A DNA stretch of 64,000 nucleotides from an uncultured Acidobacteriaceae bacterium (GCA_963799155.1 CAWCWB010000017.1:980-64979); one strand, 5' to 3'. Positions 28,994 through 49,908 are shown, counted from the first letter of the stretch. Notes: generated by a model not told the origin, from the sequence alone. Made by a program: numbers and translations.

Positions 28994-29004
28994 CTGGTTT
29001 CTAT

Positions 29005-29038: not shown

Positions 29039-29044
29039 GTGACG

Positions 29045-32774: not shown

Positions 32775-33190
32775 TCGCGGGGCTGAAGCCCCACGCTCCC
32801 TCCGTTGTGATCCGGCGCAGGCGGAGATTGAGCGGGGCGACGGGAAGAGCCCGTGGCTAAAGCCGATCTCACGCGGGTCTTCATTCCGGGGCCTGAAGGC
32901 CCCTGCTCCTTCCGTTACGCTCCGGCTTCCGGGGCCTGAAGGCCCGTGTTCCTTCCGTCGCATAAGGCGGGGTTCGTGAGGATGGAGCCCCGCGCTCCCT
33001 CCGTTGTGATTTCCTGCCCCTGAAGGCAAAGGATAGAGGCGCAGGGGCTAAAGCCCGCTGTTTTTTGTTGGCTGCTTTCGGCATGGCTGAAGCCAAGCCC
33101 TGATACAAGGCCGGAGCTTTGCGCGACGCTGAGGGTTGTTGTGTCCCACCCTTTTCGCAATGAGGTCACGAATAGGATGGGGCACCCGGC
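32775..33190. repeat. Dense cluster of dispersed hairpin-repeat modules (R5 x4, R2, R6)
   Basis: ggggctgaagccccacgctccctccgttgtgat occurs at 32782 and a variant at 32983. ggggcctgaaggccc..tccttccgt occurs at 32888 and 32930. The R2 element is at 33042-33109. gtgtcccacccttttcgcaatgaggtcacgaataggatggggcacccg is at 33139-33188. Confidence 0.75.
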
Positions 33191-33192
33191 TC

Positions 33193-34143: not shown

Positions 34144-34266
34144 TGATTCCTCCCGAAGCGGTGTTTCCTGCAGCCTCCCAACGGCCACAAAGTATACTCC
34201 CCTCGCGGGATTCCGGCTCACTCGTTTTTGGCGCCACCTTCCAGCGGCGCCGGATGGGACGCCTAG

Positions 34267-34356
34267 TTTAGTGGGCGGCGTCGGAGTCGAGGACCGGATC
34301 GAGGGTGACGAGGACGATGTCGTTGGAGCTCATGGGGAGGTTGATGGTGAGGGCGC
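34267..34356 (-). pseudogene. Orphan 3'-terminal fragment of a GH39 gene with its own stop
   Basis: 34299-34356 matches 34590-34647 at 56 of 58 positions (hand alignment). It encodes GALTINLPMSSNDIVLVTLDPVLDSDAAH-stop. Confidence 0.7.
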
Positions 34357-34589
34357 AAGGTTTTGAGCGCGGCTTCGCCGCGTACTTCATTCTTCAAAGA
34401 GCGGGGGACGGTTCGCGGCACCCTTCGGCTCCGCTCAGGGCAAGCTTATGAACTCGTGCCCTTTCAAAGCGGCGAAAGGCAACCGCAGATCCTTCGACTT
34501 CGCTTACCCCATGTTCGCGTGGCGATCACGGGGCCCCAAAAACGCTCCGCTCAGGATGACAATTCTATGGAGCGGGAGTGGTGGTGGGC
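34357..34589. repeat. Insert made of dispersed repeat modules (partial R2 plus R1) lying between the GH39 3'-end copies
   Basis: gaactcgtgccctttcaaagcgg, then ggcaaccgcagatccttcgac...gctcaggatgacaa (34479-34561). Positions 34565-34589 are the unshared last codons and stop of the intact gene. Confidence 0.7.
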
Positions 34590-36187
34590 TCGAGGGTGAC
34601 CAGCACGATGTCGTTGGAGCTCATGGGGAGGTTGATGGTGAGGGCGCCGGCATTGGAGGCGTGGAGGATGCGATCGGTTTCGGGCGTGTCGCGAGTGAGG
34701 AAGTTGAGGTGGGCGATCTGGGGCGGAGTGAGGTCGGTAGGTGAGCCCATCTCAAGGTAGGCGGAGTAGGCGTCGTTGGAGTGGAAGCCGGTGCGGTGGA
34801 TTTGGAGATGGTAGGCGACGCCGGGAACGAGATGCGTGACGCGGAGCGAGACGGGAGCGGCGGAGCGCGCGGGGATGAGCTGGGTGTAGAAGGGACGGTC
34901 GCTGACGTTCTGAGTGGGTTGGGCGAAATCCCAGATGACGGCGGTGAAGTTACGGCCGTCGAAGGCGAGCATAGATTGGGGATCGGTGGAGAGGATCGAG
35001 TCGCCCTGAAGTGCGTGCAGGTATTTGTAGGCGAAGAAGGCGGGCTTGCGAATGCCGTCGCGGGAGATGAGGCCGAAGCCGCCGTGAAATGCGGTGGGAG
35101 GCGGGCCGGATTCCTCGAAGAGATCGGAGTAGGTCCAGTAGCTCATGCCCTGAACGAAGCCGGTGGAGGCTTTGAGCTTGGAGAGGATGTAGGGTGCGCT
35201 GATGTAGGAGTCGTGGACGGGGTCGCGGGGCGTGTAGCTGGTGCTCCACTCAGTGAAGTAGAGGGGCAGGCGCGGGAATGGGGATGCGGAGATTTGCTGG
35301 CGCACGCGGCGCACGTCGCTGATGATGGCGCCGGGCGAGGGATCGAGCTTGACGTCGCTCTTGCCATTGGCGTCGAGGAAGCCGCCGTTGACGCCGTAGG
35401 AGTGAGTGGAGACGAAGTCGATGGAGACGCCGGATTGGTGGACGTGGGCGAGGAAGTCGGGGATCCAGGCTGCTCCGGCGGTGGCGGGACCGCCGACGCG
35501 GAGGTCGGGGTCGATGGATTTGATGGTGCGGGCGGTGAGGTCGTAGAGCGCGAAGTAGGCTTTCTGGTCGCCGCCCTCCCAGAAGCCGGAGAGGTTGGGC
35601 TCGTTCCAGACTTCGAAGAACCAGGAGCGGACTTCGGGCTGGCCGTAGCGCTGCTCGATGTGGCGGATGAAGGCGGCGACGAGATCGGTCCAAGCCGCGG
35701 GCTTGGGGTGCGAGGTGTTGCCGTGCCAGTAGAAGATGCTGTTCCCGGAGGTGGCGAGGGCTTCAGGGGTGAAGCTGAGCTCGACGAAGGGCTTGATGTT
35801 TTTGGCGAGTAGATCGTCGTAGAGCTGATCGATTTTGGTCCAGTCGTAGACGGTTTGGCCGTTGACTTGGCGGACGGTGCCGAGGACGTCGTGGAAGATG
35901 GCGTGAAAACGGATGTAGCGGAAGCCGAGCTCGTCGACGGCGGTTTGGAGTTGCTGCTGGCTGTCGTCGCGGATGAGGGTGCCGGGATAATCGGAGCCGA
36001 CGGAGAGATCAAAGAAGCGATCGACGGAGCCGGAGGTGCGGTGGATGTCGGCGAGAATGACGCGAGGCGGGGGTGGAACGCCGGGCGATGGCGGTTGTGC
36101 TGAGGCGGGAGGGGCGGCGGCCAGCGAGAGGAGGGTGAGGAGGACGGAGAAAACGATTACTGGACGAATTGAGGATTTGTGGGGCAT
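34565..36187 (-). CDS. Glycoside hydrolase family 39 (beta-xylosidase-like), secreted
   Basis: 540 aa with a signal peptide. FFEVWNEPNL is the acid/base segment and LPLYFTEWSTSY is the nucleophile segment. Confidence 0.8.
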   Translation of the reverse strand: MPHKSSIRPVIVFSVLLTLLSLAAAPPASAQPPSPGVPPPPRVILADIHRTSGSVDRFFDLSVGSDYPGTLIRDDSQQQLQTAVDELGFRYIRFHAIFHDVLGTVRQVNGQTVYDWTKIDQLYDDLLAKNIKPFVELSFTPEALATSGNSIFYWHGNTSHPKPAAWTDLVAAFIRHIEQRYGQPEVRSWFFEVWNEPNLSGFWEGGDQKAYFALYDLTARTIKSIDPDLRVGGPATAGAAWIPDFLAHVHQSGVSIDFVSTHSYGVNGGFLDANGKSDVKLDPSPGAIISDVRRVRQQISASPFPRLPLYFTEWSTSYTPRDPVHDSYISAPYILSKLKASTGFVQGMSYWTYSDLFEESGPPPTAFHGGFGLISRDGIRKPAFFAYKYLHALQGDSILSTDPQSMLAFDGRNFTAVIWDFAQPTQNVSDRPFYTQLIPARSAAPVSLRVTHLVPGVAYHLQIHRTGFHSNDAYSAYLEMGSPTDLTPPQIAHLNFLTRDTPETDRILHASNAGALTINLPMSSNDIVLVTLEPTTTPAP

Positions 36188-36372
36188 GGGATGCAGGCGG
36201 CAACTCCTTTAGGACTCAAAAGCGACACTATTATAAGGCGTTGTGGGCCGGCGCCCGCGGTTGGGCTGGGTTGAAGCCGTTGTTGGCGTCCGGGCTGGGG
36301 ACGGTTGGCTGGGGACGCATTGTGGAAATGTGTGCCCAAAAAGTAACGGCGGAGACAAAATCTTCGCTTGCG

Positions 36373-37126: not shown

Positions 37127-38044
37127 TTAGCTTGCCTGCTCCGCAATGCGGCGGGCGCGCCAGAGAGCGCCGTTGAGGGCGACGGTTTCGGCTGTTGTGA
37201 CGGGCATCTGGGGCGCGGCGGAGTGAAGGCCGACGAAGAATGCCTCGCGGACGATGGGCATTTTGCCGATCACGCTGCCGGTCCAGGCTGTAGGAACTTC
37301 GGCGGCGATGGCATGCTTGCGGCGCAGCTTGGAGCGGACGAGAAGCACGTTCGCGACGAGATCGGCAGCAGCTTGACGGAGAACGCCGACAGCGACAGGG
37401 TCGCCAGCTTCGGCGAGCTCGTTGATGGCCGGCGCTAAGGCGGCAAAATCAGGCGCGGGAGTGCCGTCACCGACGTTGATCAATTCATCCATGGTGGGCG
37501 TGGCCCAAATCTCGGCCACTTTCTTTAGAACTTCGGTCGGTTCGTCGCGGTCGTAGGCGTTGAGCGCCCGGCGAATGGCGTGCAGACCGATCCAGTAGCC
37601 GGAACCTTCGTCGCCGAGGCGGGAACTCCAGCCACCGGCGGACTCGAAGCCGCCATCGGGGGCGCGCCCGATGGTGTTGGTGCCGGTTCCGGCGATCTGC
37701 AGGATTCCTGGGCCTCCTTGAAAGGCCGCGTCGAGGGCGATAATGTGGTCGCCGACGACCTCAGAGCGCTCGACTGCAAAATCGCGAAAGACGGCGGTGA
37801 TCCACTCCGTGATACCGGGCATGGTGGCGCTGGCTACGCCGCAGGAGGCCGCGCGCACGCCCTTCACGCCAGCCCGCGCGTACACATCCGTGAGCAGAGC
37901 GCGCAAGTTCTCTTCGGCAGCCTCGGCGCCGACGCGCAATCGCTTGATGGAGCCGCTCTCTGCAAAGGCCAGTTGACGCTCACCGTCGACGATGGAGGCG
38001 CGCGTGCGCGTTCCGCCACCGTCGATACCGAGAATCACGCTCAT
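37127..38044 (-). CDS. BadF/BadG/BcrA/BcrD-type ATPase, N-acetylglucosamine kinase-like
   Basis: Reads MSVILGIDGGGTRTRASI.., QIAGTGTN, GGWSSRLGDEGSGYWIG. Confidence 0.8.
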   Translation of the reverse strand: MSVILGIDGGGTRTRASIVDGERQLAFAESGSIKRLRVGAEAAEENLRALLTDVYARAGVKGVRAASCGVASATMPGITEWITAVFRDFAVERSEVVGDHIIALDAAFQGGPGILQIAGTGTNTIGRAPDGGFESAGGWSSRLGDEGSGYWIGLHAIRRALNAYDRDEPTEVLKKVAEIWATPTMDELINVGDGTPAPDFAALAPAINELAEAGDPVAVGVLRQAAADLVANVLLVRSKLRRKHAIAAEVPTAWTGSVIGKMPIVREAFFVGLHSAAPQMPVTTAETVALNGALWRARRIAEQAS

Positions 38045-38345: not shown

Positions 38346-39683
38346 CTATTGTTCCGGCGCGGCGCCGTGATCGCGCAGCGTTCCCGAAAGAATGTTCAGG
38401 TTTCCGTCGGATTTTGGCGGATGGTGGCCGAGCATGTGCGCCAACCATGGATAGAGATTGACGTTTTCGAAGGGCGCGACGGTTTTTCCGGGTATGAGAT
38501 CCGGTCCGGCGGCGAAGAAAATGGCCTTCATCTCGGGCAGCATGCGGGGATCGAAGCCATGCATGCCGATGGTGGGCGGGTGATCGTCCTGGCCTGCGGG
38601 CGGAGCATGCGCACGAATCGCATAGGGCCCGGTGGCAACGACGACCGGGTCGCCCTCGCGCGGATTCTGGTTGAAGTTGAGATCGGCGGGAACGTTTTTG
38701 AGGCGATAAACGACGAACTGCGATGAAGCGTGTTTGAGCTGGTCGTACACGCGGGCGCGATCGGCTTCGGCCCTGGCGTAGAGGAGCGAGCCGACGGTCG
38801 AGAAGCCAGTGAGGTCGGCGAATTGGTCGAGGTTGACCCAACCAACTTCCGACTTCACCATGCCGTGATCGCTCACGACCACCAAATCGATGGGCAGGCG
38901 GGTGGCCTTGAGCGCGGCTTCCAGCTTGCCTATGATCGCATCCATCTTGAGCGCGACGGCGCGTGTTTGGGGCGCATCGGGGCCGAACTCGTGGCCCACG
39001 TGGTCGGGTTCAGAGTAGTAAATGGTGATGAAGTGCGGGCGGTCGGCCGCAGGCAGACGCAGCAGGGCCACGGTATCGTCGATGCGAGCCTGTTGGCTCT
39101 CGGGAGTGGGCTCGTTCTTGAAATCGTAGTGCGCGTAGTACGAGGGCCGGAAGCCGGCAATCTTGGCTTCGGAGCCGGGCCAGATCAGGCACGCGGTGCG
39201 CATACCCTGGCTCTCAGCCAGGCTCCAAAGAGGAACGCCGCCATACCAGGAACCATCGGTGACAGCCTGCGGTTGTGTGGATGCGAAGCGAGATCCGCGC
39301 GCGGGATCGAGGAAGCTGTTGGCGACGATGCCGTGGCGCCCAGGATAAAGACCCGTCACCATCGTGTAATGGTTGGGAAAGGTGAGCGAGGGGTAGCTGG
39401 GCAACATGCCTTCGGGGGCCCAGACACCGCGCTTGCCGAGCGCCAGCAGGTGCGTGGCGTTGTCGCGCTTGGCATAGTCCCAGCGAAAACCGTCGAGCGA
39501 AACCAGCACGACGTAGTGCTGGCCTTGCGCCCAGGCTGAGTTGGGGCCGTTGTCGACATGCGTGAGGGGGAGAGCAGGATTGAAGCCGGTTCCCTGCCTT
39601 GCGGGGGTATGTGGAGCGTCGACCTGGACAAAGACGAGAAAGATTGCGGCGAGAGTGAGGCGAGCGATCGTGCGCAATCGCAT
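38346..39683 (-). CDS. Ectonucleotide pyrophosphatase/phosphodiesterase (NPP, alkaline-phosphatase superfamily), secreted
   Basis: Reads VVLVSLDGFRWDY, SLTFPNHYTMVTGLYPGRHGIV, EPDHVGHEFGP, VVSDHGM. Confidence 0.85.
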   Translation of the reverse strand: MRLRTIARLTLAAIFLVFVQVDAPHTPARQGTGFNPALPLTHVDNGPNSAWAQGQHYVVLVSLDGFRWDYAKRDNATHLLALGKRGVWAPEGMLPSYPSLTFPNHYTMVTGLYPGRHGIVANSFLDPARGSRFASTQPQAVTDGSWYGGVPLWSLAESQGMRTACLIWPGSEAKIAGFRPSYYAHYDFKNEPTPESQQARIDDTVALLRLPAADRPHFITIYYSEPDHVGHEFGPDAPQTRAVALKMDAIIGKLEAALKATRLPIDLVVVSDHGMVKSEVGWVNLDQFADLTGFSTVGSLLYARAEADRARVYDQLKHASSQFVVYRLKNVPADLNFNQNPREGDPVVVATGPYAIRAHAPPAGQDDHPPTIGMHGFDPRMLPEMKAIFFAAGPDLIPGKTVAPFENVNLYPWLAHMLGHHPPKSDGNLNILSGTLRDHGAAPEQ

Positions 39684-39743: not shown

Positions 39744-40685
39744 CTAGTTGAAGACCCTTGCCCAAACCATGCGCGCAAGCCCTACGGCGAGGATGGCGAG
39801 CTTTTGCAGAAGCGGCACGCTGGCGCGCCGCGTGAAGACATCGTAGTTGGCGCGCTCAATGCGCTTGAGCAGAGCGTGGTAGATGGAAACCAGCACCCAC
39901 AGAGCGGGACGGCTCACGGGGTCGATGAGCGGGAGCAGGTGGCGCGCCGCGCGGTAGTAGCGTTCCGCGAGCCGCGCGATGGCAGCAAAGACTTCCCGCT
40001 GGCCGGGCGTGGGCGGCACGTCCTTGGCGCGATGAAGCAGCGAATCGAGAGTCACTCCGTGTTGCGCGAGTTCTTTAAGAGGCAGATAGACCCGGTTGCG
40101 CGCGGCGTCCTCGGCCACATCGCGCAAGATGTTGGTCAGTTGGAAGGCAATTCCGGTTTCCTCAGCGAGCTTTTCGGCGTGCATGTCGCGGTAGCCAAAG
40201 ATGCGGATGCAGACCAGGCCGACGACCGAGGCCACGAGATAGCAGTAGCGGTAGAGATCGGCGAAGGTCGCGTAGGTGTGCGGAGCGCCGGTGGGAACGT
40301 GGTCCAGATCGAGGATGACGCCGGCCACAAGCTCGTCGAGCAGGACGAGTGGAATCGCGAAGCGCCAGGTCGCGTCGCGCACGGCAAGAAAAACAGGATC
40401 GCTGGTGGCCGCGCCCTTCGCGGTCGCGCCCTTGGCAGCCTCGTGCCAAGCTGCCAGCCAGGCATCGAGGCGGTGGCGGCGCTCCTGGCGCGACAGGCTT
40501 TCGTCGTCGGCGAGGTCGTCAGCCTGCCGCATGAAGGCGTAGACGGCGCAGATGGCGTTGCGTCGCTCGAGTGGAAGAGCGACGAAAGCGTAGTAGAAGT
40601 TCTTGGCTTCGCGCTTGGCGATTGCCCGGCAGGCCGCGTAGGCGCGGGCCAGGTCCAGGTCGTGCGATGGGGCTTTCTGCGTCAA
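39744..40685 (-). CDS. hpnD: Presqualene diphosphate synthase (squalene/phytoene synthase family)
   Basis: AYAACRAIAKREAKNFYYAFVALPLERRNAICAVYAFMRQADDLADDE plus a second Asp-rich region NILRDVAEDAARNRVYLP. The TTG start overlaps the hpnC stop (TTGA). Confidence 0.8.
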   Translation of the reverse strand: MTQKAPSHDLDLARAYAACRAIAKREAKNFYYAFVALPLERRNAICAVYAFMRQADDLADDESLSRQERRHRLDAWLAAWHEAAKGATAKGAATSDPVFLAVRDATWRFAIPLVLLDELVAGVILDLDHVPTGAPHTYATFADLYRYCYLVASVVGLVCIRIFGYRDMHAEKLAEETGIAFQLTNILRDVAEDAARNRVYLPLKELAQHGVTLDSLLHRAKDVPPTPGQREVFAAIARLAERYYRAARHLLPLIDPVSRPALWVLVSIYHALLKRIERANYDVFTRRASVPLLQKLAILAVGLARMVWARVFN

Positions 40686-41679
40686 TCAGTCTTTCCTGTC
40701 GATCGAGCGCCGACCCCCAAAAAGGGCATTGTCTTGGCGCCCAGGGCTCGAGCGGCGAGCGCGAGCTTGGTGCGTTTCGAGATGGCCGGGCGCGCGCTGA
40801 GCACATCGTAATCGCGCTGCTCGATGGCGCGCAAAATCTCCAGGCCGCCACGGCTAAACAGATCGAGGTCGAGGGCGATGTCGCGGCTGACTTTGCCGAT
40901 GAGCGGAAGACCTTTTGCAAAAAGTGAGCGGGCAAAATCGACTTCATGGCGCAGCAGGGCGCGAAACTCCGGAGTCGCGACGCCTTGTGCGATCGTCTCA
41001 TCGCTCACGCCAAAACGGCGCATGTCTTCTTGCGGAATATAGACGCGGCCCTTGGCGAAGTCCACGCGCACATCCTGCCAGAAGTTGGCCAGTTGCAGCG
41101 CGGAACAGGTGGCATCAGAAAGCCTGAAGTTGGTTTCTCGCGCTTCGGGGCCAGCTTCGCCACAGGCGTAGAGCACTAGGCGGCCCACGGGATTCGCCGA
41201 GTAGCGGCAGTAGCCGAGCACATCGTCCATGGTGGCGTATCGGGTGACGGTCTGGTCCTGGCGAAACGCGACGAGCAGGTCGGCAAAAGGCTCCTTGGGA
41301 ATGGCGCAGGCGCGAATGGTCTCGGCCAGCGCCACAAAGACCGGATGGCGCGCGCGGCCCTCATAGCAGGCGTCCAGCTCCCGCCCCCACAAATCCAGCA
41401 GGGCAAGAGCCACGGAGCGGTCGCCGCACTTCGTCGCCCAGATCGTCGGAGATGCGGCAATAGGCGTAGATGGAATGGAAGTGCGGGCGCAGCGCTCTGG
41501 GCAGAGAACCAGGTGGCGACGTGGAAGTTCTCGTAGTGCGTATGGGCCAGTAGGCGGCAGTAGGCGCGCGCTTCTGCGAGCGTGGGTGCAACCTTGGGAA
41601 TGCGATAGCCGGGCGGAAGCGCGGCCCAGCCGCGAGCGACGAGTTCTTCGGACGAAGGCTGGGCGGCGGTGGCGGTCAT
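40682..41679 (-). pseudogene. hpnC: Hydroxysqualene synthase (squalene synthase family) with two frameshifts (about 41505 and 41427)
   Basis: Three frames carry the protein: MTATAAQ..AYCRLLAHTHYENFHVATWF, then LPRALRPHFHSIYAYCRISDDLGDEV, then GDRSVALALLDLWGRELDACYEG..ANFWQDVRVDFAKGRVYIPQEDM... Confidence 0.8.
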
Positions 41680-41694
41680 GGGACTGTTGCATTC

Positions 41695-41875
41695 CCTCAG
41701 GGGCAAATGCCCATCTCTATTTTGCGCCTTTTTCGGCACGAGTAAACTCGTGCCCTGTTACAAAACCGGATAAGGAACCACCTGCTGCAATCGATGTTAT
41801 GTCCGTCGAAAAGCAACCGCAGATCCTTCGACTCGTTTTGGCGAAAAACCACGCCAAAACTCGCTCAGGATGACA
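41695..41875. repeat. Dispersed repeat modules R2 (41695-41765) and R1 (41813-41875) between the ADH gene and hpnC
   Basis: ccctcaggggcaaatgccc..tttttcggcacgagtaaactcgtgccctgttacaaaa; gcaaccgcagatccttcgactcgttttggcg..cgccaaaactcgctcaggatgac. Confidence 0.75.
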
Positions 41876-41908
41876 GCTCATGTTTGTGCTTGGCCGCAGG
41901 TGGGCACT

Positions 41909-43183
41909 TCACGGCACAATGGCCGTCTTGATCTCGGTGGAGCGGTTCATCAGCTTCTCAAAGACGCGGTTGAGCTCGTAGAGGTGAGCGCGGCCGGTAA
42001 TGAAAGCGCCGGCCTGAAACTTCCCGCCGGCAATGAGCGCCAGCGCCTTGCGGCAAATGGCAGGTGTGTGATGGAAGGTGGCGCGCAGAGTGATGTCGCT
42101 ATAGTGGATGCGGTTGGTGTCGAGAATGACGTGGGTGTTGGCGGCGCAGCCGCCAAAGAAGTTCACGGTTCCGCCCTTGCGCACCAACTCGACGGCCTCC
42201 TGCCAGGTCTCGGGCATGCCCACGGCCTCAATGGCGATATCGACGCCGCGGTCGTTTGGCGTGAGCGCCCTGGCATCTTTGATGGCCTTGCGGATGGACG
42301 AGGTGTGCACGATGTGCGCCGCGCCCAACTGCCGCGCCGCGTCTGCCTGGCCGTCGTGTTTGACGATGGCGATGGTTTCGTAGCCGGCCAGCGCAGCCAC
42401 GTGCAGAATCATGAGCCCCAGCGGGCCGCCGCCGATCACCGCGACAATATCGCCCTTTTGGGGATGGGAGTCCTCGAATCCATGGACTGCGCAGGCCAGC
42501 GGCTCGGTGAGCGCGGCGTGCTCCAGCGGCACGTTGTCGGGAATGCGGAGGGTATTCTTGGCGACGATGCGCTCCGGAATCTTGATGAACTCGGCATAGG
42601 CGCCGTTGTTAAAGAGCAGATCGTCGCAGAGGTTCTCCTGGCCGCGCAAGCAGAAGTAGCACTTGCCGCAAGGCGCGGAGTTGAGCGCCACCACGCGGTC
42701 GCCGGGAGCAAAGTCGGTGACTCCCTCGCCCGCTTCGACCACGGTTCCGGCCTGTTCGTGGCCGAACAGCGCCGGAGGAACGATCATGCGCGCGTGATAG
42801 CCGCGGCGAAAGACCTTCAAATCGGTTCCGCAGGTGAGCGCAGCGCCCACCTGAACGACCAGCTCGCCCAGGGCTGCCTTGGGGATAGGAACCTGCTCGA
42901 TGCGGACATCTTCGCGGCCGTGGAGGATGGCGGCGCGCATGGTGACGCGTCCGCCGAGAAGCGCATTCTCTACCGTCTTGCGGCCCTGGTGGACAACGGT
43001 CTCGACCGTCTTGCGGCCCACGACGACAGCCGACTCGACTGTATTCAGGCCGACCTCAACGACCGTCTCGACTGTGTTCAGGCCGCCCTCGACGACGTCC
43101 TCAACTTTTTTGCGGCCTTCTTCGACAACGGTCTTGACCGTTTTGCGGCCCCGGAGGATCGCGGCTTTCACCGTGCTCGCCAT
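41909..43183 (-). CDS. Zn-dependent MDR-family alcohol/polyol dehydrogenase with an ~80-aa N-terminal 11-residue-repeat extension
   Basis: Core reads MRAAILHGREDVRIEQVPIP..CGTDLKVF..GHEQAGTVVEAG..CGKCYFCLRGQENLC..VIGGGPLGLM. The upstream in-frame ATG at 43183 has the SD GGAGGAG 4 nt upstream. The internal Met has no SD. Confidence 0.8.
   Translation of the reverse strand: MASTVKAAILRGRKTVKTVVEEGRKKVEDVVEGGLNTVETVVEVGLNTVESAVVVGRKTVETVVHQGRKTVENALLGGRVTMRAAILHGREDVRIEQVPIPKAALGELVVQVGAALTCGTDLKVFRRGYHARMIVPPALFGHEQAGTVVEAGEGVTDFAPGDRVVALNSAPCGKCYFCLRGQENLCDDLLFNNGAYAEFIKIPERIVAKNTLRIPDNVPLEHAALTEPLACAVHGFEDSHPQKGDIVAVIGGGPLGLMILHVAALAGYETIAIVKHDGQADAARQLGAAHIVHTSSIRKAIKDARALTPNDRGVDIAIEAVGMPETWQEAVELVRKGGTVNFFGGCAANTHVILDTNRIHYSDITLRATFHHTPAICRKALALIAGGKFQAGAFITGRAHLYELNRVFEKLMNRSTEIKTAIVP
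42914..43177. repeat. Eight tandem 33-bp units, in frame within the ADH 5' region
   Basis: Hand-phased units each start gcggcc/caggcc/gcgtcc at 42914, 42947, 42980, 43013, 43046, 43079, 43112 and 43145. They encode GRKTVKTVVEE/GRKKVEDVVEG/GLNTVETVVEV/GLNTVESAVVV/GRKTVETVVHQ/GRKTVENALLG/GRVTMRAAILH. Confidence 0.9.
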
Positions 43184-43202
43184 CAATCTCCTCCTCTGCT
43201 CC

Positions 43203-44360
43203 TTACTCAGCTCCCGCGCCGGGCACAGGCTCCATCATAATCTTCATCGAATCGGCTTTGGGGTGCGAAGCGATTTCGATGGCCGCGGCGGCCTCTTCCA
43301 GCGGGAAGCGGTGCGAAATCAACTGCGTCAGGTCGAAGCCGTTTCGGTACCCGCCAAAAACTATGCCCGTTACTTCGTCCATGAGCGGGAATGAAGAAGA
43401 GTATGAGCCGAGTAAGGTCTTTTCGTCCACACAGACCGCGGCGGGGTCGAATGTGGCCTCGCCGTGCTGCGTTTGGGCAAAGAGCATGACCTTGCCGCCA
43501 GGGCGCACTGCGTCCATGGCCGTGCGGATGAGGGCGTTGCCGCCGACAGCGAGGATCACCGCATCCGCGCCGCGACCGTCGGTCTCGGCAAAGACGCGAT
43601 CGACCACGTTCTCGGTTTCAGCGTGGATCGGGTTCGAGAGGCCGAAACGGGCGGCGATGGCGTGGCGCTCCGGGAAGAGGTCGGAGGTGAGCACGCGGGC
43701 GCCGGTGCGCGCGGCGAGCGCGGCATGCATCAGGCCGATGGGGCCCTGGCCGATGACCAGGACGGTGTCGTCGGGCGCCAGGTTGAGCATCTTTACGCCC
43801 TTCAGAACGGTGTTTACGGGCTCGACGAACGCCGCCTGTTCGAAGGGGACGCCCAAGGGAATGTGGACCACGCCACCCTTGGCGACCAAAAAGTCCATGA
43901 CGCGGATATACTCGGCAAAACCGCCCCCGGATGGCTCGAAGCCGGCTGTGGCGCCGGTTCTTTTGTAGAGCGGGCACTGCGCGGGCGTCTGCTTGCGGCA
44001 GTAGTAGCACTCGCCGCAGGGAACGTGGTGGAAGCTCACCACGCGGTCGCCCACCGCGAATCCGGTGACGCCGGCGCCCACCTGCGCGACCACCCCTGCC
44101 ATCTCGTGGCCGAAGATGCGCGGGGCCGAATGTGAGCCCATGTGGATTTTCTTGAGATCTGTGCCGCAGACGCCGCAGGTAGCGATCTTGATGAGCAGCT
44201 CGCCGGGTCCGATGCGCGGAACAGGGACGGTTTCCAGGCGCATATCGTTGATGCCGCGATAGACGACGGCGCGCATGGCGGAGGGAATTCTGGGATCGAT
44301 ACGCAGTCTGGGATTGGAGATTTGGGTAGCCATTCTATTCTCTGATGCGACCTCGTTCAC
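43203..44360 (-). CDS. Zn-dependent MDR-family alcohol/polyol dehydrogenase (sorbitol/threonine-dehydrogenase-like)
   Basis: Reads CGVCGTDLKK, GHEMAGVVAQVG, CGECYYCRKQTPAQC, VIGQGPIGLM. The GTG start overlaps the hpnG stop (GTGA). Confidence 0.85.
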   Translation of the reverse strand: MNEVASENRMATQISNPRLRIDPRIPSAMRAVVYRGINDMRLETVPVPRIGPGELLIKIATCGVCGTDLKKIHMGSHSAPRIFGHEMAGVVAQVGAGVTGFAVGDRVVSFHHVPCGECYYCRKQTPAQCPLYKRTGATAGFEPSGGGFAEYIRVMDFLVAKGGVVHIPLGVPFEQAAFVEPVNTVLKGVKMLNLAPDDTVLVIGQGPIGLMHAALAARTGARVLTSDLFPERHAIAARFGLSNPIHAETENVVDRVFAETDGRGADAVILAVGGNALIRTAMDAVRPGGKVMLFAQTQHGEATFDPAAVCVDEKTLLGSYSSSFPLMDEVTGIVFGGYRNGFDLTQLISHRFPLEEAAAAIEIASHPKADSMKIMMEPVPGAGAE

Positions 44361-45031
44361 GAGAGAAAATCGAGCAGTGACTCCGCGATGCTTTGGGAAG
44401 CCCGCTTACTATTCTCGCCCATCCGGAGGAGCGCGGGCCAGTACCAAGGCCGGAACACGGCAAAAAATGCAAAGCGCGCGCGGCGGAAGCGGCCATCGGG
44501 CGTGAGGAAGCGGTTGAAGTCGGGGAGGCGGTCGGTGAGGGCGTCGCTGACACCTTTGATGGAATAGAACGGGATGCCGCGCATGGCGGCGAGACGGGCG
44601 ACGGCCGCGGCTTCCATGTCCACGAGGGCGGCTTGGTATGCGGAGGTGAGGCGGCGCTTTTCGGTATATGGAGCCACCTTAGGGCTAGTGGCGAGCCAGA
44701 GTTCTCCAGCGCCCGCATCGCAATGGAAGCGCTCGCCGGTGCGAACGTCGATGACGCCGGCGACGTTGTGGGCCGTGCCGGGGGCGATTTCGGCGCGAAG
44801 CGCTCCGGCCCAGCCGACGGAGAAGACGAGATCGATGGGTCCGCCCTCTTCAATGGCAGCGAAGGTGCGGGTGGCGGCGAATTGGCCGGCGCCGGCGCAG
44901 GCTGCGATCCATTCTTCTTCCTTGTTGCGCCGGGCCCAAAATTGGATGCCATTCCGGGAGCTGTGCGGCCAGTTGCGGACGAGCGGCTTGAGCTCGCCGG
45001 GCATGGCGGCAATGATGGCGACGCGGGTCAT
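44357..45031 (-). CDS. hpnG: Hopanoid-associated phosphorylase-family nucleosidase (adenosylhopane nucleosidase)
   Basis: PNP_UDP_1-like: MTRVAIIAAMPGELKPL.., GWAGAL, LVDMEAAAVA. The ATG overlaps the hpnA stop (ATGA). The call rests on position between hpnA and other hpn genes. Confidence 0.7.
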   Translation of the reverse strand: MTRVAIIAAMPGELKPLVRNWPHSSRNGIQFWARRNKEEEWIAACAGAGQFAATRTFAAIEEGGPIDLVFSVGWAGALRAEIAPGTAHNVAGVIDVRTGERFHCDAGAGELWLATSPKVAPYTEKRRLTSAYQAALVDMEAAAVARLAAMRGIPFYSIKGVSDALTDRLPDFNRFLTPDGRFRRARFAFFAVFRPWYWPALLRMGENSKRASQSIAESLLDFLS

Positions 45032-46041
45032 GCGTGGACCTGTGCAGACCTTGCCGGCGCGTAGCCGTTCGAGCGGAACCAGTCGATGGCGGCGCGCATG
45101 GCCGGGTAGACGGGTAGGAGGCGGAAGCCAAGCTCAGCTTGAGCGCGAGCGCTCGAGGCGTACATCTTCTTGCGGCCCATGCGGACCTCTTCCAGCGTGG
45201 CGCGCGGCTCCTTGCCGCGAATGCGGCCCGTAATCCACTCCTCGAAGAAGGCGTAGGTGACGGCGACGGCGAAGGGAATTTTGACTGTGGGTGAGGGGAT
45301 GCCGGTGATGGCCGACATCTTGTCGAGGATCTGCTTGAGGGTGAGGTTTTCGCCGCCCAGAATGTAGCGCCGGCCGGGCTGGCCTTTGGTGAGAGCGAGC
45401 ACGTGGGCGCGGGCGACTTCGGAGACATCGACAAGATTGAGGCCGGTATCGACATACGCGGGGAATTTGCTGTTGAGGAAGTCGACGAAGATGCGGCCGG
45501 TGGGCGTGGGCTTGCGGTCGTTGGGGCCGATGGGGGTGGTGGGGTTGAGGATGATGACTTGCTGGCCGCCCTCGGCGGCTTTGATGGCTTCCTGCTCGGC
45601 GAGGAACTTGGAACGCTTGTAGTGGCCGACCATGTCGGCGAGCGAGACGGGCGTCTCTTCATTGATGACGATGCCGTCGGTGCGGAAGTGCATCGTTGCC
45701 ACGCTCGACGTGTAGACGAAGCGCTTGACGCCGGCCGCGCGGGCCAGGCGGAGCAGCTCGCGGGTGCCGTCTACGTTGGCGCGGACCATGGCCGCGGGAT
45801 CGGGAACCCAGAGGCGGTAATCGGCGGCGACGTGGACGACGGCATCGCAGCCGGTGAGCGCAGGACGCAGCGAATCGGGCTCGGCCAGGTCGCCGACGTG
45901 CGTCTCGCCGCGGATGCCTTCGAGGTTGGCGAGGTTCGAGGATTTGCGGACCAGCAGGCGCAGATCGGCGCCTTCCGCGGCCAAAGCCTTGGCCACATGA
46001 TGCCCAACGAATCCCGTCGCGCCTGTGACAAAGATCTTCAT
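45028..46041 (-). CDS. hpnA: Hopanoid-associated NAD-dependent sugar epimerase/dehydratase-family protein
   Basis: Reads MKIFVTGATGFVGHHVAKAL..VHVAADYRLWVPDP..YTSSVAT..YKRSKFLAE (YxxxK). Confidence 0.8.
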   Translation of the reverse strand: MKIFVTGATGFVGHHVAKALAAEGADLRLLVRKSSNLANLEGIRGETHVGDLAEPDSLRPALTGCDAVVHVAADYRLWVPDPAAMVRANVDGTRELLRLARAAGVKRFVYTSSVATMHFRTDGIVINEETPVSLADMVGHYKRSKFLAEQEAIKAAEGGQQVIILNPTTPIGPNDRKPTPTGRIFVDFLNSKFPAYVDTGLNLVDVSEVARAHVLALTKGQPGRRYILGGENLTLKQILDKMSAITGIPSPTVKIPFAVAVTYAFFEEWITGRIRGKEPRATLEEVRMGRKKMYASSARAQAELGFRLLPVYPAMRAAIDWFRSNGYAPARSAQVHA

Positions 46042-46303: not shown

Positions 46304-46416
46304 CATGCGAATTTGCATTACTGTATCATGCAGATTTACATTACTCTGTCATGCAGATTTGCATTATTTTGCCTCGCGCTAGTTTTTTCATTCCCATTTC
46401 ATGCAGATATGCATTA
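46304..46416 (+). promoter_or_regulatory. Four iterated palindromic operator-like sites upstream of vapB
   Basis: cATGCgaATTTGCATTA is at 46304, cATGCAGATTTaCATTA at 46327, cATGCAGATTTGCATTA at 46350 and cATGCAGATaTGCATTA at 46400. Spacing is 23, 23 and 50 nt. Each contains ATGCA-N4-TGCAT. Confidence 0.6.
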
Positions 46417-46452
46417 CAATCGCCTTGTTGCGGGAAGTTCGAGGAGAAGCAC

Positions 46453-46704
46453 ATGGCGACACTGACGGTTACGGCGCGGGGGCAGGTTACGTTCCGCAAA
46501 GATGTGCTCAGGCATCTGGGCGTGAAGCCGGGAGAAAAGATCGCTCTGGAGCTGCTACCGGGCGGCAAAGGAATCGTCAGGGCGGCCCGCAAAACCGGCA
46601 GCATCGACGACTTTATCGGATCGCTGGCAGGCAAGACAAAGAAAACAGCGACCGTTGCCGAGATCAAGAGAGCCACAGAACGCGCATGGGCAGGGATACG
46701 ATGA
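46453..46704 (+). CDS. vapB: AbrB/MazE/SpoVT-family antitoxin
   Basis: MATLTVTARGQVTFRKDVLRHLGVKPGEKIALELLPGG. Overlaps vapC by ATGA. Confidence 0.8.
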   Translation: MATLTVTARGQVTFRKDVLRHLGVKPGEKIALELLPGGKGIVRAARKTGSIDDFIGSLAGKTKKTATVAEIKRATERAWAGIR

Positions 46705-47099
46705 AGGTTTCAGTGGACACGAATGTACTGCTGCGCGCTGCCGTCAGGGACCACCCCAAACAGAGCGAACGGGCCCGCGCCATCCTGCGCAGCGCAAGCG
46801 TAATCGCAGTCAGTCTTCCCTGCCTGTGTGAATTTGCCTGGGTGCTCGATCGCGTGTATGGCTTTGAGCGCAGCCAGATTGCCAGCGCGATTGAGACCCT
46901 GTGCAACGGATCAAATGTCGTTGTCGACCCGGAGGCAGTGAACGCAGGGCTCGAGATGCTCCGAGCGGGCGGGGATTTTGCCGACGGCGTGATCGCCTAC
47001 GAGGGTGCGTGGCTGGGCGGGGAGATCTTTGTATCTTTTGATAAGAAGGCTGTGGCCCTGATCGCCAGGCAGAGACAGAAGGCCAAGTTGCTGGCGTGA
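46701..47099 (+). CDS. vapC: PIN-domain ribonuclease toxin
   Basis: MKVSVDTNVLLRAAVRDHP.., with later acidic residues in CEFAWVL and GGDFADGVI. Confidence 0.8.
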   Translation: MKVSVDTNVLLRAAVRDHPKQSERARAILRSASVIAVSLPCLCEFAWVLDRVYGFERSQIASAIETLCNGSNVVVDPEAVNAGLEMLRAGGDFADGVIAYEGAWLGGEIFVSFDKKAVALIARQRQKAKLLA

Positions 47100-47596: not shown

Positions 47597-49249
47597 TTAA
47601 GGGGCGAGCTTGGGCAGGGCCGGACGCACATTGGGCGCCGCGGGTGGTTGCGCGGCCACCGGCGCGTTGCCGGCGAGCGCGGGCCGCACCTTGGTGGCCG
47701 CTGCGCCCGCTGGTGTGGCGGCCGTTGAGGCACTTTGCGCGGACGGAGCCTTAGTCTGCTGTGGGGCGACCGGGTTCGAGACCGCACCCGCGGAAGCCGG
47801 CTGTGCCGCTTTGCTCGCCGGTGGCAACGGCACGAGGGGCGGCGTGGGCGCCGAGAGCCTGGGTATGGAGCCATTGCCCTCGAGCGGCTGCAGACTGGGA
47901 GGGGCGGGCCACACGGTGACCGTCGAGGGTTTGGAAGCCAAGGTATTGGCGCGCAGCGGCCTGGGACTGGGAGCAGCGGACCACACGGTGGCTGGCGAGG
48001 GTTTGGGAATTGAGACATTGGCCTGCAACGGCTTGGGACTGGAAGCGGCGGGCTGCGCGGCGGGCGCCGAAGCCGGCGCGGAAACAGGATGGTCCACCGC
48101 GTATCGCAGTTCGAGTGGTGTCGTGCCCGGAGCGGGTTCGGTAGCGGTGGGTTCCGGGGTGTTTGCGGCGGGCGGCGCGGGGACTGACGCCGGCAGGACC
48201 GTCAACTGCATGGGCTGGTCGTCGCGTGCCGCAGGCGGCTGCGGAACCCGGAGTTCGGTGAGCCGGAACAGGCCCAGGAAGCTCATGACCAGGAAGAGCG
48301 CGGCTGCCGGAACCCAGAACATCACGCTGCCGGCGGTTGCTGAAACCAAATGCATCAGCCGCCGCTTGGCCCGCTCCCGATGTTTAGGTTCCCGAGGCGG
48401 CTCCGGCGCAACGTCAACGACGACGGGCTCTCTCGAATGCGGAGTCAATTCGAGGCCGGCAATGACTTTGGCCACCATGCTACTGTCAACCGGTTTGGTG
48501 TTCAGCTTGCGGCACAGGGAAAGCGCGTTAAAGCACAGGTTGTTGATGGTGCGGGGAGTGCCATGGCTGGCCTCGGTGATCAACTTGAGCGCTTTTTCTG
48601 TGAACAGCGGCACGCCAACATAGCCGGCTTGTTTCACACGGTAGTCGATGTACCCGACTGTCTCTTCCGCGGAAAGCGGTTCAATGTGGCAGACCGTTGA
48701 AATGTGCTGGCGAAGTTGCACCAGAGAAGCCTGCTGCAACTTGCCGGAGAGCTGCGGCTGCCCGGATAGGACGATTTGCATCAGCTTGCCTTGCGAAGTT
48801 TCGAAGTTGGTGAGGAGGCGGACTCTCTCCAGCACGGCTTCGGGCAGACTCTGCGCCTCGTCGATCACCACCACGAATTTCCGCCCCGCCCGATTCTCCC
48901 TGATGAGCGCGCTGCTTAACTGCGCGTGCATCTCGGCGCTGCTCTGGCCGGGAGCGATGTCGAGGTCGCGCAGGATGTAGGCGACAAATTCCCGCGGCTC
49001 GCACTGGGCATCGAGATCGAAGAGAAAGACAATGCGTGCGGTGTCACGAATGTCCTCGAGAAATTTGAACAACAGCGTGGTCTTCCCCATTCCCGGGGGG
49101 GCAATCATGGCCGTGAAACCGCGGTTGCTCAAGAAGCCGAAGTGCAGCGCCTCCAGCGCCTGCTGATGGGTTTGGCTGAGATACAAGCAACGCGGATCGG
49201 GAGTGACTGCGAATGGTTCTTCGCGAAAACCGAAGAAGTCCGACAGCAT
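47597..49249 (-). CDS. ExeA/GspA-like AAA ATPase with one TM segment and a long Pro/Ala-rich C-terminal region
   Basis: MLSDFFGFREEPFAVTPDPRCLY.., Walker A APPGMGKTTL, Walker B FVVVIDEAQ, then TM FWVPAAALFLVMSFLGLF. Tandem repeats of roughly 70 bp at about 47870-48050 encode the P-rich tail. Confidence 0.8.
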   Translation of the reverse strand: MLSDFFGFREEPFAVTPDPRCLYLSQTHQQALEALHFGFLSNRGFTAMIAPPGMGKTTLLFKFLEDIRDTARIVFLFDLDAQCEPREFVAYILRDLDIAPGQSSAEMHAQLSSALIRENRAGRKFVVVIDEAQSLPEAVLERVRLLTNFETSQGKLMQIVLSGQPQLSGKLQQASLVQLRQHISTVCHIEPLSAEETVGYIDYRVKQAGYVGVPLFTEKALKLITEASHGTPRTINNLCFNALSLCRKLNTKPVDSSMVAKVIAGLELTPHSREPVVVDVAPEPPREPKHRERAKRRLMHLVSATAGSVMFWVPAAALFLVMSFLGLFRLTELRVPQPPAARDDQPMQLTVLPASVPAPPAANTPEPTATEPAPGTTPLELRYAVDHPVSAPASAPAAQPAASSPKPLQANVSIPKPSPATVWSAAPSPRPLRANTLASKPSTVTVWPAPPSLQPLEGNGSIPRLSAPTPPLVPLPPASKAAQPASAGAVSNPVAPQQTKAPSAQSASTAATPAGAAATKVRPALAGNAPVAAQPPAAPNVRPALPKLAP

Positions 49250-49908
49250 GATGCTAACCTCCGCCCTTCGGCAGCGCAGCGAGCACCTGAGTGCTCCGGG
49301 AGCCGGCAAAAGTGTCCGGCGCGCTGAACGCTGGCTTCATATTATCTGGAATCTCCGGCAACCCTATCGCCTTCGAACCAATACAGTTACCTCCTCTAGC
49401 GATCTTTCCGGCATGGGTTTGAGAGCCAACGCCCTGCGCGTGCCCTGCAGGGCTATAGCCGGGATCGAAAAGCCGAGATCTGCCCCTTTCTGAGGCGAAG
49501 TCATAGATATCGGCGCTCCCTGACGCAGAATCCCGATCGCATGAAGCACTCCAGATGCGGTTTAGAAAGCACGCTGCCCATTGATCCGGAGGTGAAGATG
49601 GCGCGGCGATATACTGGCGGCAAGGCGGAAAGAAGCCGTCAATCCGGTACGATTCCGCGGGCGGACAGGGCTCAGGAGTGCTTTGATCGCGCGCGATAGA
49701 GCAAGAGAGATCACCGGATTAGCCCAGGAAGCAGGGTGTGACTTGCGGGCGGCAGATGGCTCCGCCGGGAGTCGGTTGAGGTCCTACTGCTGAGAAGGGG
49801 GAAAGACAGCCGGGAATGGAGACAGCCGCAGGAGGGCTCGCTCGGTCACAGAGTGAGTTCGATATCCGGCAGCGCCCCGCATCGGCAGCCGGCGGCGCGC
49901 CCGGCAAG

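Follow-up and report, generated by a model that had tools for sequence, protein, structure and literature searches.

The whole 64-kb stretch of DNA analysed here, referred to below as the window, belongs to a Terracidiphilus (a soil Acidobacterium) and carries on its minus strand hpnA, an hpnG-like gene, two genes for Zn-dependent MDR dehydrogenases (ADH1 and ADH2), hpnC and hpnD, in that order. The first-pass annotation had described hpnA, hpnG and the two ADH genes as co-directional, and all four are indeed encoded on the minus strand; coordinates and profile matches likewise place hpnC-hpnD after the ADH genes on the same strand, as it had proposed. The first gene of the unit, hpnA (45028..46041, minus strand), codes for a 337-aa extended-SDR protein of the 'hopanoid-associated sugar epimerase' family TIGR03466, to which it is assigned with 465.2 bits (cutoff 367.65), the HMM alignment starting at ATG 46041. 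Synteny with the nearest relatives begins exactly at this gene. Two sigma-70-like promoter matches from a consensus scan, which are weak evidence, lie upstream of it (46325..46391, minus strand). The nearest solved structure to HpnA is 3WJ7 (1.3e-93), the chain of which is itself a TIGR03466 member (506 bits) and which we take to be Gox2253 of Gluconobacter oxydans. The latter, studied by Yin et al. in 2014, is reportedly an NADPH-dependent reductase acting on C7–C10 aliphatic aldehydes.

At the other end of the cluster, hpnC (squalene synthase HpnC; 40682..41692, minus strand) scores 277.6 bits on TIGR03464 (cutoff 250.45), but the alignment does not begin before residue 93 of the ORF, so that its start codon is uncertain. 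It is overlapped by 4 nt by hpnD (presqualene diphosphate synthase; 39744..40685, minus strand), for which TIGR03465 is the best match at 224.7 bits, below the cutoff of 278.6. A PF01663 phosphodiesterase occupies the place of hpnE downstream of hpnD. The earlier statement that no hpnE adjoins hpnCD can be extended to the entire 64-kb window, where this gene was not found, and the copy of the cluster in this genome is also without shc and hpnH.

The hpnG-like gene (44357..45031, minus strand) encodes a 224-aa nucleosidase/phosphorylase (PF01048, PNP_UDP_1, 3.6e-18), presumed to be an adenosylhopane nucleosidase. Its best NCBIfam match is TIGR03468 (HpnG) with 85.8 bits, below the cutoff of 187.1; an orthologue at one of the related loci (L070) scores 88 bits on the same model, and the best PDB matches are, weakly, to MTA/SAH nucleosidases. 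It is the fastest-evolving gene of the cluster, with a median identity of 62% across the loci listed. Since HpnG is the top family and the gene has hpnA on one side and hpnH-linked genes on the other, its product is best regarded, by genomic context, as a divergent HpnG-like protein.

Junctions between the genes were read directly in the sequence. The ATGA overlap of hpnA and hpnG and the 19-nt gap between the ADH genes are as first annotated; the latter (43184..43202, minus strand) contains the Shine-Dalgarno-like GGAGGAG at 43188-43194, 4 nt before ATG 43183. The GTGA overlap postulated between hpnG and ADH1 requires a start at GTG 44360, whereas all 69 related loci compared share the ATG at 44333, and many of them have in-frame stops shortly upstream of it. 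Translational coupling through GTGA was accordingly rejected in favour of this conserved 'MATQ..' start; the span of ADH1 first given as 43203-44360 keeps its end at 43203 but not its start, and the hpnG-ADH1 junction becomes a 23-nt spacer.

ADH1 (43203..44333, minus strand; 376 aa) consists of ADH_N and ADH_zinc_N domains, which match PF08240 (93.4 bits) and PF00107 (68.4 bits), both above the gathering cutoffs. The catalytic C53/H76/E77/E171 and structural C106/C109/C112/C120 are invariant in the alignment of its orthologues (A1), and the structural zinc site follows the CxxCxxCx7C pattern, as in ADH2. An NAD-type Asp at the end of strand beta-2 ('VLTSDL') is present in every captured orthologue. 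The first-pass span of ADH2, 41909-43183, stands, with an ATG at 43183. The protein reaches 424 aa because an 81-aa N-terminal repeat extension (42941..43183, minus strand) precedes the catalytic body (41909..42940, minus strand; 343 aa). The latter has the same two domains (PF08240, 83.5 bits; PF00107, 78.8 bits; again above gathering cutoffs) and an NADP-type signature, V-K/R-H/R, at the position of the NAD-type Asp. The corresponding alignment (A2) shows no variation at H142 and C172/C175/C178/C186, and conservation of 90% or more at C118/E143/E227. The body is modelled by AF2 with a pLDDT of ~97, and its nearest folds are generic TDH/SDH-like ones.

The two enzymes had been described as sorbitol- and threonine-dehydrogenase-like MDR proteins. 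Their Zn-MDR domains and ligands, as well as the top-ranking threonine, polyol and inosose dehydrogenase models, agree with this placement, but no equivalog cutoff is reached: ADH1 and ADH2 score 157 and 162 bits on TIGR00692 (TDH; cutoff 458), 160 and 150 bits on NF041097 (IolM; cutoff 450) and 92 and 100 bits on NF007375 (L-idonate 5-dehydrogenase; cutoff 469). The JGI annotation labels these proteins L-iditol 2-dehydrogenase. With the polyol/threonine branch (TDH, sorbitol/xylitol dehydrogenase, 1E3J ketose reductase, IolM) they share the two-domain fold (target-normalised TM-scores 0.87–0.91), the catalytic Cys-His-Glu, the 'EP' Glu, the structural Cys4 zinc lobe and GxGxxG. They differ from it in that identity is only ~25–31%, all equivalog models remain far under cutoff, and they sit amid lipid biosynthesis genes rather than genes for sugar or amino-acid catabolism. 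Because the best models are those of threonine 3-dehydrogenase and scyllo-inosose 3-dehydrogenase, while the aldehyde reductase Ahr model gives only 65–76 bits, family placement points to secondary-alcohol or polyol chemistry rather than aldehyde reduction.

Bacteriohopanepolyols (BHPs) are major bacterial membrane lipids and precursors of geohopanes, which are among the most abundant molecular fossils. To our knowledge, the conversion of ribosylhopane to bacteriohopanetetrol (BHT) is the sole reaction of the core pathway without a gene; we know of the ribosylhopane reductase activity from a cell-free system only, and of no protein family defined for it. The cell-free reduction, described by Bodlenner et al. 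in 2015, is said to have used NADPH. The premise of the first-pass annotation that this step has no assigned gene is upheld by the literature of 2025–26: according to a 2025 paper in Geobiology the enzyme turning ribosylhopane into BHT is still to be established, a review of August 2026 draws the step as non-enzymatic, and no gene assignment was found in the literature up to that month.

The association of dehydrogenases with acidobacterial hopanoid clusters is itself not new, having been published in 2017. For subdivisions 1, 2 and 3, Sinninghe Damsté et al. (2017, Front Microbiol 8:968) independently described a cluster C (hpnA-hpnG-ug1) and a cluster A (ug2-hpnC-hpnD-hpnE); their paper lists ug1 (~370 aa, after hpnG) and ug2 (~350 aa, before hpnC) as Zn alcohol dehydrogenases, the function of both being 'not established'. 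ADH1, with 376 aa and 23 nt past hpnG, directly follows hpnA-hpnG as ug1 does, and the 343-aa body of ADH2 lies upstream of hpnC-hpnD as ug2 does. In position and size they therefore correspond, clusters C and A being concatenated in Terracidiphilus, where ug1 and ug2 are represented by ADH1 and ADH2. Local departures are the additional 81 aa of ADH2, with its repeat, and the absence of hpnE, shc and hpnH from the cluster.

The comparison of gene order drew on 80 species-representative loci among the matches listed, all from Terriglobales, with ADH1 identities of 68–89%. The order hpnA-hpnG-ADH1-ADH2-hpnC-hpnD is found in about 75 of these 80 species-level genomes, usually inside ispH-shc-hpnH…hpnE; shc is present in 47, hpnH in 49 and hpnE in 63 of the loci listed, counts that are limited by contig ends. 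ADH1 lies directly downstream of hpnG in 78 of the 80, and the two genes are no more than 60 nt apart in 74 of these 78. HpnG varies far more across the loci listed than ADH1 and ADH2 do, the median identities of the latter two being 79% and 81%. The Terriglobales counts are inflated by shared ancestry, all of the evidence being synteny in one order.

Co-localization with hpn genes, proposed as a check for either ADH, held within Terriglobales/Acidobacteriaceae, and Acidobacteriaceae fill the list of ADH1 matches; it did not extend to ADH2 homologues of 45–48% identity, beside which, including a Ktedonobacterales-like one, no hpn genes were found. The nearest non-acidobacterial homologues lie in sugar-utilisation or unrelated neighbourhoods. 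A survey published in Geobiology in 2025 found no comparable ADH candidate beside alphaproteobacterial hpn clusters; outside Acidobacteriota, BHT production evidently requires no such enzyme. Given this, and the lack of hpn context around ADH2 homologues of 48% identity or less, neither ADH appears to be the general enzyme for the ribosylhopane-to-BHT step.

When the cluster is split, ADH1 keeps with shc-hpnH-hpnA-hpnG and ADH2 with hpnC-D-E. In Edaphobacter the array ispH-shc-hpnH-hpnA-hpnG-ADH1 ends at ADH1, without ADH2; its genes thus stand in the order of the pathway steps, ADH1 closing the series. Terriglobus roseus has an ADH2 orthologue of 355 aa (60% identity) that shares 4 nt with hpnC at the head of ug2-hpnC-hpnD-hpnE, and hpnA, hpnG and ADH1 were not found within 10 kb of it. 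The coupling to hpnG first claimed for both dehydrogenases thus applies to ADH1 only.

Taken with hpnA, both ADH1 and ADH2 are plausible candidates for the last step of BHT synthesis, as judged from gene order and sequence. At least one of them probably works in the hopanoid pathway. The ADHs would be soluble or peripheral Zn-MDR oxidoreductases, co-expressed with hopanoid genes and acting on alcohol or carbonyl groups of the lipids of this pathway. That either is the physiological ribosylhopane reductase is a minority possibility; for ADH1 specifically we consider the assignment rather unlikely, and for ADH2 very unlikely. If ADH1 had this role, HpnG would strip adenosylhopane of its adenine, the ribosylhopane so formed would equilibrate between its hemiacetal and the open-chain C-35 aldehyde, and ADH1, made from the mRNA of hpnG 23 nt downstream, would hold the polyhydroxylated head group at its catalytic zinc while hydride transfer from NAD(P)H yields BHT. 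We offer this mechanism, hydride transfer to the open-chain aldehyde, tentatively. ADH2, of the NADP(H) type and with its N-terminal 11-mer extension, would go functionally with the squalene/hopanoid lipid module and not with HpnG. It speaks for the role of ADH1 that all known genes from FPP to ribosylhopane flank the ADHs co-directionally in the loci listed. It speaks against it that HpnA, ADH1 and ADH2 make three oxidoreductases for one missing reduction, that the Asp of ADH1 is of the NAD type while the cell-free reduction is reported to have used NADPH, and that the case for the ADHs is synteny within one lineage. As a candidate, HpnA is in no way inferior to them. Synteny and sequence data do not discriminate among HpnA, ug1 and ug2; in the Terracidiphilus lineage the search is narrowed to these three co-transcribed oxidoreductases, which differ in linkage. 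Were ADH1 or ADH2 to catalyse the step, no gap would be left in the pathway, in soil Acidobacteria at least, heterologous BHT production would become possible and genomic prediction of BHP producers sharper.

HpnA, like the ADHs, is an NAD(P)-dependent oxidoreductase of the same transcription unit, linked to hpnG and competing for the missing reduction; unlike them, it has an unrelated SDR fold without zinc and occurs in many hopanoid producers beyond Acidobacteriota, whereas the ADHs are lineage-restricted among the matches listed. HpnA might therefore be the ribosylhopane reductase, with ADH1, alone or with ADH2, carrying out another redox reaction on the C35 side chain that is specific to the lineage; we consider this explanation possible without favouring it. 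ADH1 could then oxidise the ribosylhopane hemiacetal to the lactone ribonylhopane, a compound that according to the literature is known from bacteria, or NAD-linked oxidation and NADPH-linked reduction could invert a carbinol to give a BHT stereoisomer. An NAD-type ADH1 and an NADP-type ADH2 are what would be expected of such an oxidise-then-reduce pair, and both look like polyol, threonine and inosose dehydrogenases. HpnA, for its part, is a clear family member that accompanies hpnG in all these genomes, and its family TIGR03466 includes PDB 3WJ7, said to be an NADPH-dependent aldehyde reductase. It was also HpnA that Sinninghe Damsté et al. (2017) put forward for the step. However, according to the literature Rhodopseudomonas palustris forms BHT without hpnA, and some evidence suggests that B. 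cenocepacia, too, can do without hpnA in making BHT. Moreover, the literature consulted contains no report of unusual BHT isomers or lactones from subdivision 1 Acidobacteria, whose BHPs were analysed only after Rohmer degradation, and the separation of ADH1 from ADH2 in certain genomes speaks against their being an obligate pair.

Two further explanations are less in keeping with the data. ADH2 could serve the squalene branch as an NADP(H) enzyme whose substrate, connected with HpnC/D/E, is an isoprenoid alcohol or aldehyde such as one of the farnesol or hydroxysqualene type, its adjacency to hpnG in the window being incidental to fusion of the two clusters. The 4-nt overlap of ug2 with hpnC in T. 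roseus, away from hpnA, hpnG and ADH1, the Edaphobacter side-chain clusters without ADH2, the 2017 placement of ug2 in squalene cluster A and an N-terminal repeat that may bind membranes are all consistent with this. We nevertheless find it improbable: the literature has HpnC, HpnD and HpnE sufficing for squalene, so no redox step is missing there, ADH2 in the window is at least 216 nt from hpnC (a variable distance that includes a REP-like element) yet 19 nt from ADH1, and a membrane anchor is only marginally supported. It is similarly doubtful that the ADHs are dehydrogenases of general function, for polyols or sugar alcohols and without a part in hopanoid synthesis, and owe their place in the cluster to a frozen accident of vertical inheritance in Terriglobales, as could be read from the single order covering all 80 loci among the matches listed, the L-iditol 2-dehydrogenase label, the context of the nearest non-acidobacterial homologues and the generic folds, since spacing is operon-like (19–23-nt gaps or overlaps), curated polyol-dehydrogenase models are all under cutoff, and the linkage has outlasted numerous insertions in the region as well as two different ways of splitting the cluster, with an hpn gene remaining beside each ADH throughout.

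The copy-number-variable extension of ADH2 is a new detail, unmentioned in the 2017 paper. It comprises ~7 repeats of the 11-residue unit G-R-K-T-V-E-T-V-V-x-x (33-nt period in TRF), the last copy of which runs into strand beta-1. In ~35 related species it is an open frame of 6, 7 or 8 repeats; it is missing from ~27 close relatives and all more distant ones, and a six-frame search of 1.3 Mb found the 11-mer at the ADH2 position only. There is no match to it in Pfam. AF2 predicts helices at residues 2-32 and 38-78 (pLDDT 51–66), and amphipathicity is marginal under a periodicity-preserving control. The extension resembles the amphipathic repeats of alpha-synuclein, apolipoproteins, perilipins and LEA proteins in its 11-residue period, in a top hydrophobic-moment harmonic of ~98 degrees for most flavours and in the long AF2 helices. 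It differs from them in its marginal amphipathicity, in one flavour that appears beta-like, in the lack of detectable homology (the Synuclein Pfam model gives a non-significant E = 0.067) and in deriving from the gene's own first beta-strand. A joint reading would make ADH1, translated right after HpnG and capturing the reactive hemiacetal/aldehyde, the dedicated Acidobacteriota ribosylhopane reductase and ADH2 its membrane-tethered NADPH-dependent partner, with the 11-mer repeat, arisen by tandem duplication of that first strand, as an amphipathic lipid anchor; we judge this combination unlikely.

Between ADH2 and hpnC lies an intergenic region of at least 216 nt (41693..41908, minus strand), in which no canonical terminator was found; among relatives the gap varies from about -81 to 3863 nt. 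The region contains a REP-like palindrome (~41820-41875) and a second hairpin, folds with a z-score of -2.87, and harbours the motif GTCATCCTGAGCGAG, which recurs at 7872 and 34546.

Four genes are arranged head to tail on the minus strand of the window: hpnA (46041, with an ATG start, to 45028; a clear member of TIGR03466, where it scores 465 bits and the cutoff is 368), a gene for an HpnG-like protein of 224 aa with a PNP_UDP_1 domain (45031–44357), and two genes for alcohol dehydrogenases with ADH_N and ADH_zinc_N domains, ADH1 (44333–43203; 376 aa) and ADH2 (43183–41909). They are followed on the same strand, across a 216-nt structured spacer, by hpnC and then hpnD. As described in the first-pass annotation, hpnA and the HpnG-like gene share an ATGA overlap, a 19-nt spacer containing GGAGGAG separates ADH1 from ADH2, and hpnE is absent beside hpnCD; tblastn searches of the window returned no match to hpnE, shc, hpnH or ispH. 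A scan for promoters and terminators detected only weak promoter-like sequences ahead of hpnA, and behind ADH2 it detected no terminator. [quoted passage not shown]

That description of the operon is real with one exception, the GTGA overlap between hpnG and ADH1, which requires GTG 44360 as the start codon. When 69 related loci were lined up, all 69 had instead a conserved ATG, encoding 'MATQ..' and corresponding to 44333 in the window; codons upstream of it were unconserved, with frequent in-frame stops. The ADH1 protein is therefore 376 aa long, and its gene starts 23 nt from the hpnG stop. The two genes are at most 60 nt apart in 74 of 78 loci, and their linkage is operon-tight even without the overlap. 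The spacer (44334–44356) and its equivalents in loci L001–L062 contain in many cases a conserved GAGGTCAC(A) motif ∼15–20 nt upstream of the ADH1 ATG, too distant for standard Shine-Dalgarno spacing, and in many loci the hpnG frame extends 26 nt beyond the ADH1 start.

The HpnG-like protein is named on context, because its TIGR03468 score falls well short of the curated threshold (85.8 versus 187.1 bits), although HpnG is still its best family. A distant orthologue, at 88 bits, is likewise under the cutoff, and since the orthologues are systematically so, Acidobacteriota have a divergent HpnG subfamily. Across the 80 related loci used for comparison (L001–L080) this protein evolves much faster (median identity 62%, minimum 36%) than HpnA, ADH1 and ADH2 (79–85%; medians of 79% for ADH1 and 81% for ADH2).

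To retrieve the related loci, each GTDB species was scanned through a single genome, which yielded more than 581 ADH1 relatives; the best 80, all from Terriglobales and 68–89% identical, were used. The names of homologues assign the source organism to Terracidiphilus (family Acidobacteriaceae). In tblastn searches with the window proteins, the order hpnA-hpnG-ADH1-ADH2-hpnC-hpnD was colinear in about 75 of these 80 loci. With SHC, HpnH, IspH and HpnE added as queries, the usual full order on a single strand was ispH-shc-hpnH-…-hpnA-hpnG-ADH1-ADH2-hpnC-hpnD-hpnE; HpnE was found in 63, HpnH in 49 and SHC in 47 loci, counts that are limited by contig ends. The two dehydrogenase genes thus lie amid every known gene for the conversion of farnesyl diphosphate to ribosylhopane.

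Three loci, two of them from Edaphobacter, carry an ispH-shc-hpnH-hpnA-hpnG-ADH1 array that ends at ADH1, with neither ADH2 nor hpnCD nearby. The ADH2 orthologue of Terriglobus roseus, 60% identical, lies in an ADH2-hpnC-hpnD-hpnE array and shares a 4-nt overlap with hpnC; no hpnA, hpnG or ADH1 was found within 10 kb of it. Coupling to hpnG had been proposed for both dehydrogenases; because ADH2 stays with hpnC-hpnD-hpnE where the clusters split, it is a property of ADH1 only, which remains with hpnA-hpnG. ADH2 belongs with the squalene genes, and only a fusion of the two clusters, such as the window shows, brings it next to ADH1.

The association of these dehydrogenases with hpn genes has been in print since 2017. 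Sinninghe Damsté et al. 2017 (PMC5462960) described a 'cluster C' (hpnA-hpnG-ug1) and a 'cluster A' (ug2-hpnC-hpnD-hpnE) in Acidobacteria subdivisions 1–3, concatenated in Terracidiphilus gabretensis; their Table S1 lists ug1, the equivalent of ADH1, as a Zn-dependent ADH (∼370 aa) and ug2, that of ADH2, as a Zn-binding one (∼350 aa), the function of each being given as 'not established'. Within the collection of papers searched, hpnH, hpnG and an alcohol dehydrogenase were mentioned together in this paper alone. The new detail is a repeat in ADH2, described below.

Our ADH1 sampling covers Terriglobales (the best 80 of more than 581 relatives), subdivisions 2 and 3 being taken from the 2017 paper, and the best 120 matches listed in the ADH protein searches were all at least 84–86% identical. 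An exhaustive profile search found the closest relatives of ADH2 beyond its own cluster at 60% identity (Terriglobus) and the next ones at 48% at most. Several representatives with 45–48% identity were traced to long contigs and had no hpn neighbours; one was Ktedonobacterales-like, one lay in a sugar-utilisation locus and the others were unrelated. The co-localisation expected of hopanoid genes was thus borne out within Terriglobales but not among these ADH2 homologues: the synteny is strong, but single-lineage and previously published. A 2025 survey of Alphaproteobacteria that sought unknown genes near hpn clusters found none besides hpnA, hpnB, hpnL and hpnM.

ADH1 and ADH2 are only 32% identical to each other. 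Both possess catalytic Cys/His/Glu ligands together with the distal 'EP' Glu and a structural CxxCxxCx7C motif, all invariant or nearly so in their families. The first-pass annotation had called them sorbitol- and threonine-dehydrogenase-like, and sequence and predicted fold indeed place both in the threonine/polyol dehydrogenase branch of the medium-chain dehydrogenases/reductases (MDR). More specific assignments failed: the best curated models, threonine 3-dehydrogenase (TDH) and scyllo-inosose 3-dehydrogenase, scored 150–162 bits, far under cutoff, the Ahr aldehyde reductase model only 65–76 bits, and identification as threonine, sorbitol/iditol, idonate, galactitol-1-P or inosose dehydrogenase or as Ahr was rejected accordingly. 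A match to TIGR03366, 'HpnZ_proposed', was discarded, as that name is phosphonate-related and unconnected with hopanoids. Foldseek with the AF2 model of ADH2 and a PDB sequence search retrieved generic TDH/SDH/ADH neighbours at 20–31% identity, which therefore give no clue to the substrate.

The cofactor positions differ between the two enzymes. ADH1 carries the Asp of 'VLTSDL', a mark of NAD-preferring MDRs, in every orthologue captured, whereas ADH2 has V-K/R-H/R there; 4EJ6, its closest solved relative, has S-T-R at this position, an NADP-type signature. Cell-free reduction of ribosylhopane is reportedly NADPH-dependent. The signature of ADH2 would be compatible with a reductive role; for ADH1 in the role of an NADPH-dependent reductase, the Asp would be neutral or speak mildly against it. 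Alternatively, the dehydrogenases may carry out other side-chain or isoprenoid redox steps: an NAD-type enzyme such as ADH1, acting on the sugar hemiacetal, could equally give ribonylhopane, a lactone reported from bacteria.

The reduction of ribosylhopane to bacteriohopanetetrol (BHT) does lack an assigned gene, as had been presumed: a 2025 paper terms the step unestablished, an August 2026 review 'non-enzymatic', and the searched literature since 2016 mentioning ribosylhopane contains no gene assignment. Its attribution to the two dehydrogenases is reasonable for ADH1 and weaker for ADH2, but sequence evidence favours it over neither of two alternatives, reduction by HpnA or other side-chain or isoprenoid redox steps for the dehydrogenases. 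We consider it probable that at least one of them works in the hopanoid pathway, and possible, though less likely than not, that one is the ribosylhopane reductase of these bacteria; that every BHT producer relies on either of them as its general enzyme has next to no probability.

The step may instead be performed by HpnA, encoded in the same operon and suggested for it, in preference to ug1 or ug2, in the 2017 paper (PMC5462960). Among solved structures, 3WJ7 comes closest to HpnA (1.3e-93), and its chain itself belongs to TIGR03466 (506 bits), so that a structure exists for this uncharacterised family; it is called a 'putative oxidoreductase', apparently without an HpnA label. We take 3WJ7 to be Gox2253 of Gluconobacter oxydans, reportedly an NADPH-dependent reductase of C7–C10 aliphatic aldehydes. 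If this identity and these substrates are right, the chemistry of HpnA is exactly that of the missing step. According to the literature, however, R. palustris makes BHT without HpnA, and HpnA is maybe dispensable in Burkholderia.

ADH2 starts 81 residues ahead of the canonical MDR start, MRAAILHG. This extension (42941–43183, minus strand) is built from an 11-residue unit, G-R-K-T-V-E-T-V-V-x-x, repeated about seven times. About 35 related species have it in an open frame, with a copy number of 6, 7 or 8 and in three sequence flavours homogenised within lineages; it is missing in about 27 close relatives and all more distant ones, and a search of 1.3 Mb of related sequence located the 11-mer repeat at no other site. 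The final copy runs into the first beta-strand of ADH2; the repeat thus originated from the 5' end of the gene itself, through tandem duplication of 33 bp. A Pfam search with it gave no significant match. AF2 predicts two long helices at low confidence (pLDDT 51–66), and the hydrophobic moment is greatest at the angle of an 11/3 helix. A shuffle test of amphipathicity (0/5000) overstated the effect, since power at 98 degrees is a property of every 11-periodic sequence; with a column-permutation control, which preserves periodicity, the values were 0.03–0.06 for four repeat flavours and 0.40 for a fifth. This leaves the amphipathicity marginal, so that the idea of an amphipathic anchor that binds lipids is attractive but has weak support.

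Compared with its nearest relatives (L001, L006 and L056), the window loses synteny precisely at the hpnA start. These loci have ispH-shc-hpnH 1–3 kb upstream, where the window has a short ORF region (46349–46756) that resembles L002 (2867–3272) and is probably the 'ug3' of Sinninghe Damsté et al. 2017. Beyond it lies an AAA_22/PEP-CTERM-type ATPase gene (47597–49309), with no shc or hpnH up to the window end (64000). After hpnD, where most relatives have hpnE, the window encodes a PF01663 phosphodiesterase/nucleotide pyrophosphatase (38346–39683) and a BadF/NagK-like ATPase (37127–38044), a replacement common only to the window, L001, L002, L006 and L056; since HpnG is called a phosphorylase, a role of the PF01663 protein as a putative phosphoribosylhopane phosphatase is conceivable. 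Relative to L001 and L006, a ∼9-kb insertion (∼27400–36330) encodes a 1009-aa protein with an N6 DNA methylase domain (29696–32725), an OmpA/DUF4892 protein (33193–34221) and a GH39 glycosidase (34565–36187). A REP-like palindrome, GTCATCCTGAGCGAG … CGAAGGATC around a GC-rich hairpin, is present in three copies (41860–41874, 7872–7886 and 34546–34560), the first of them within the spacer between ADH2 and hpnC, whose fold is more stable than those of its shuffles (z = -2.87).
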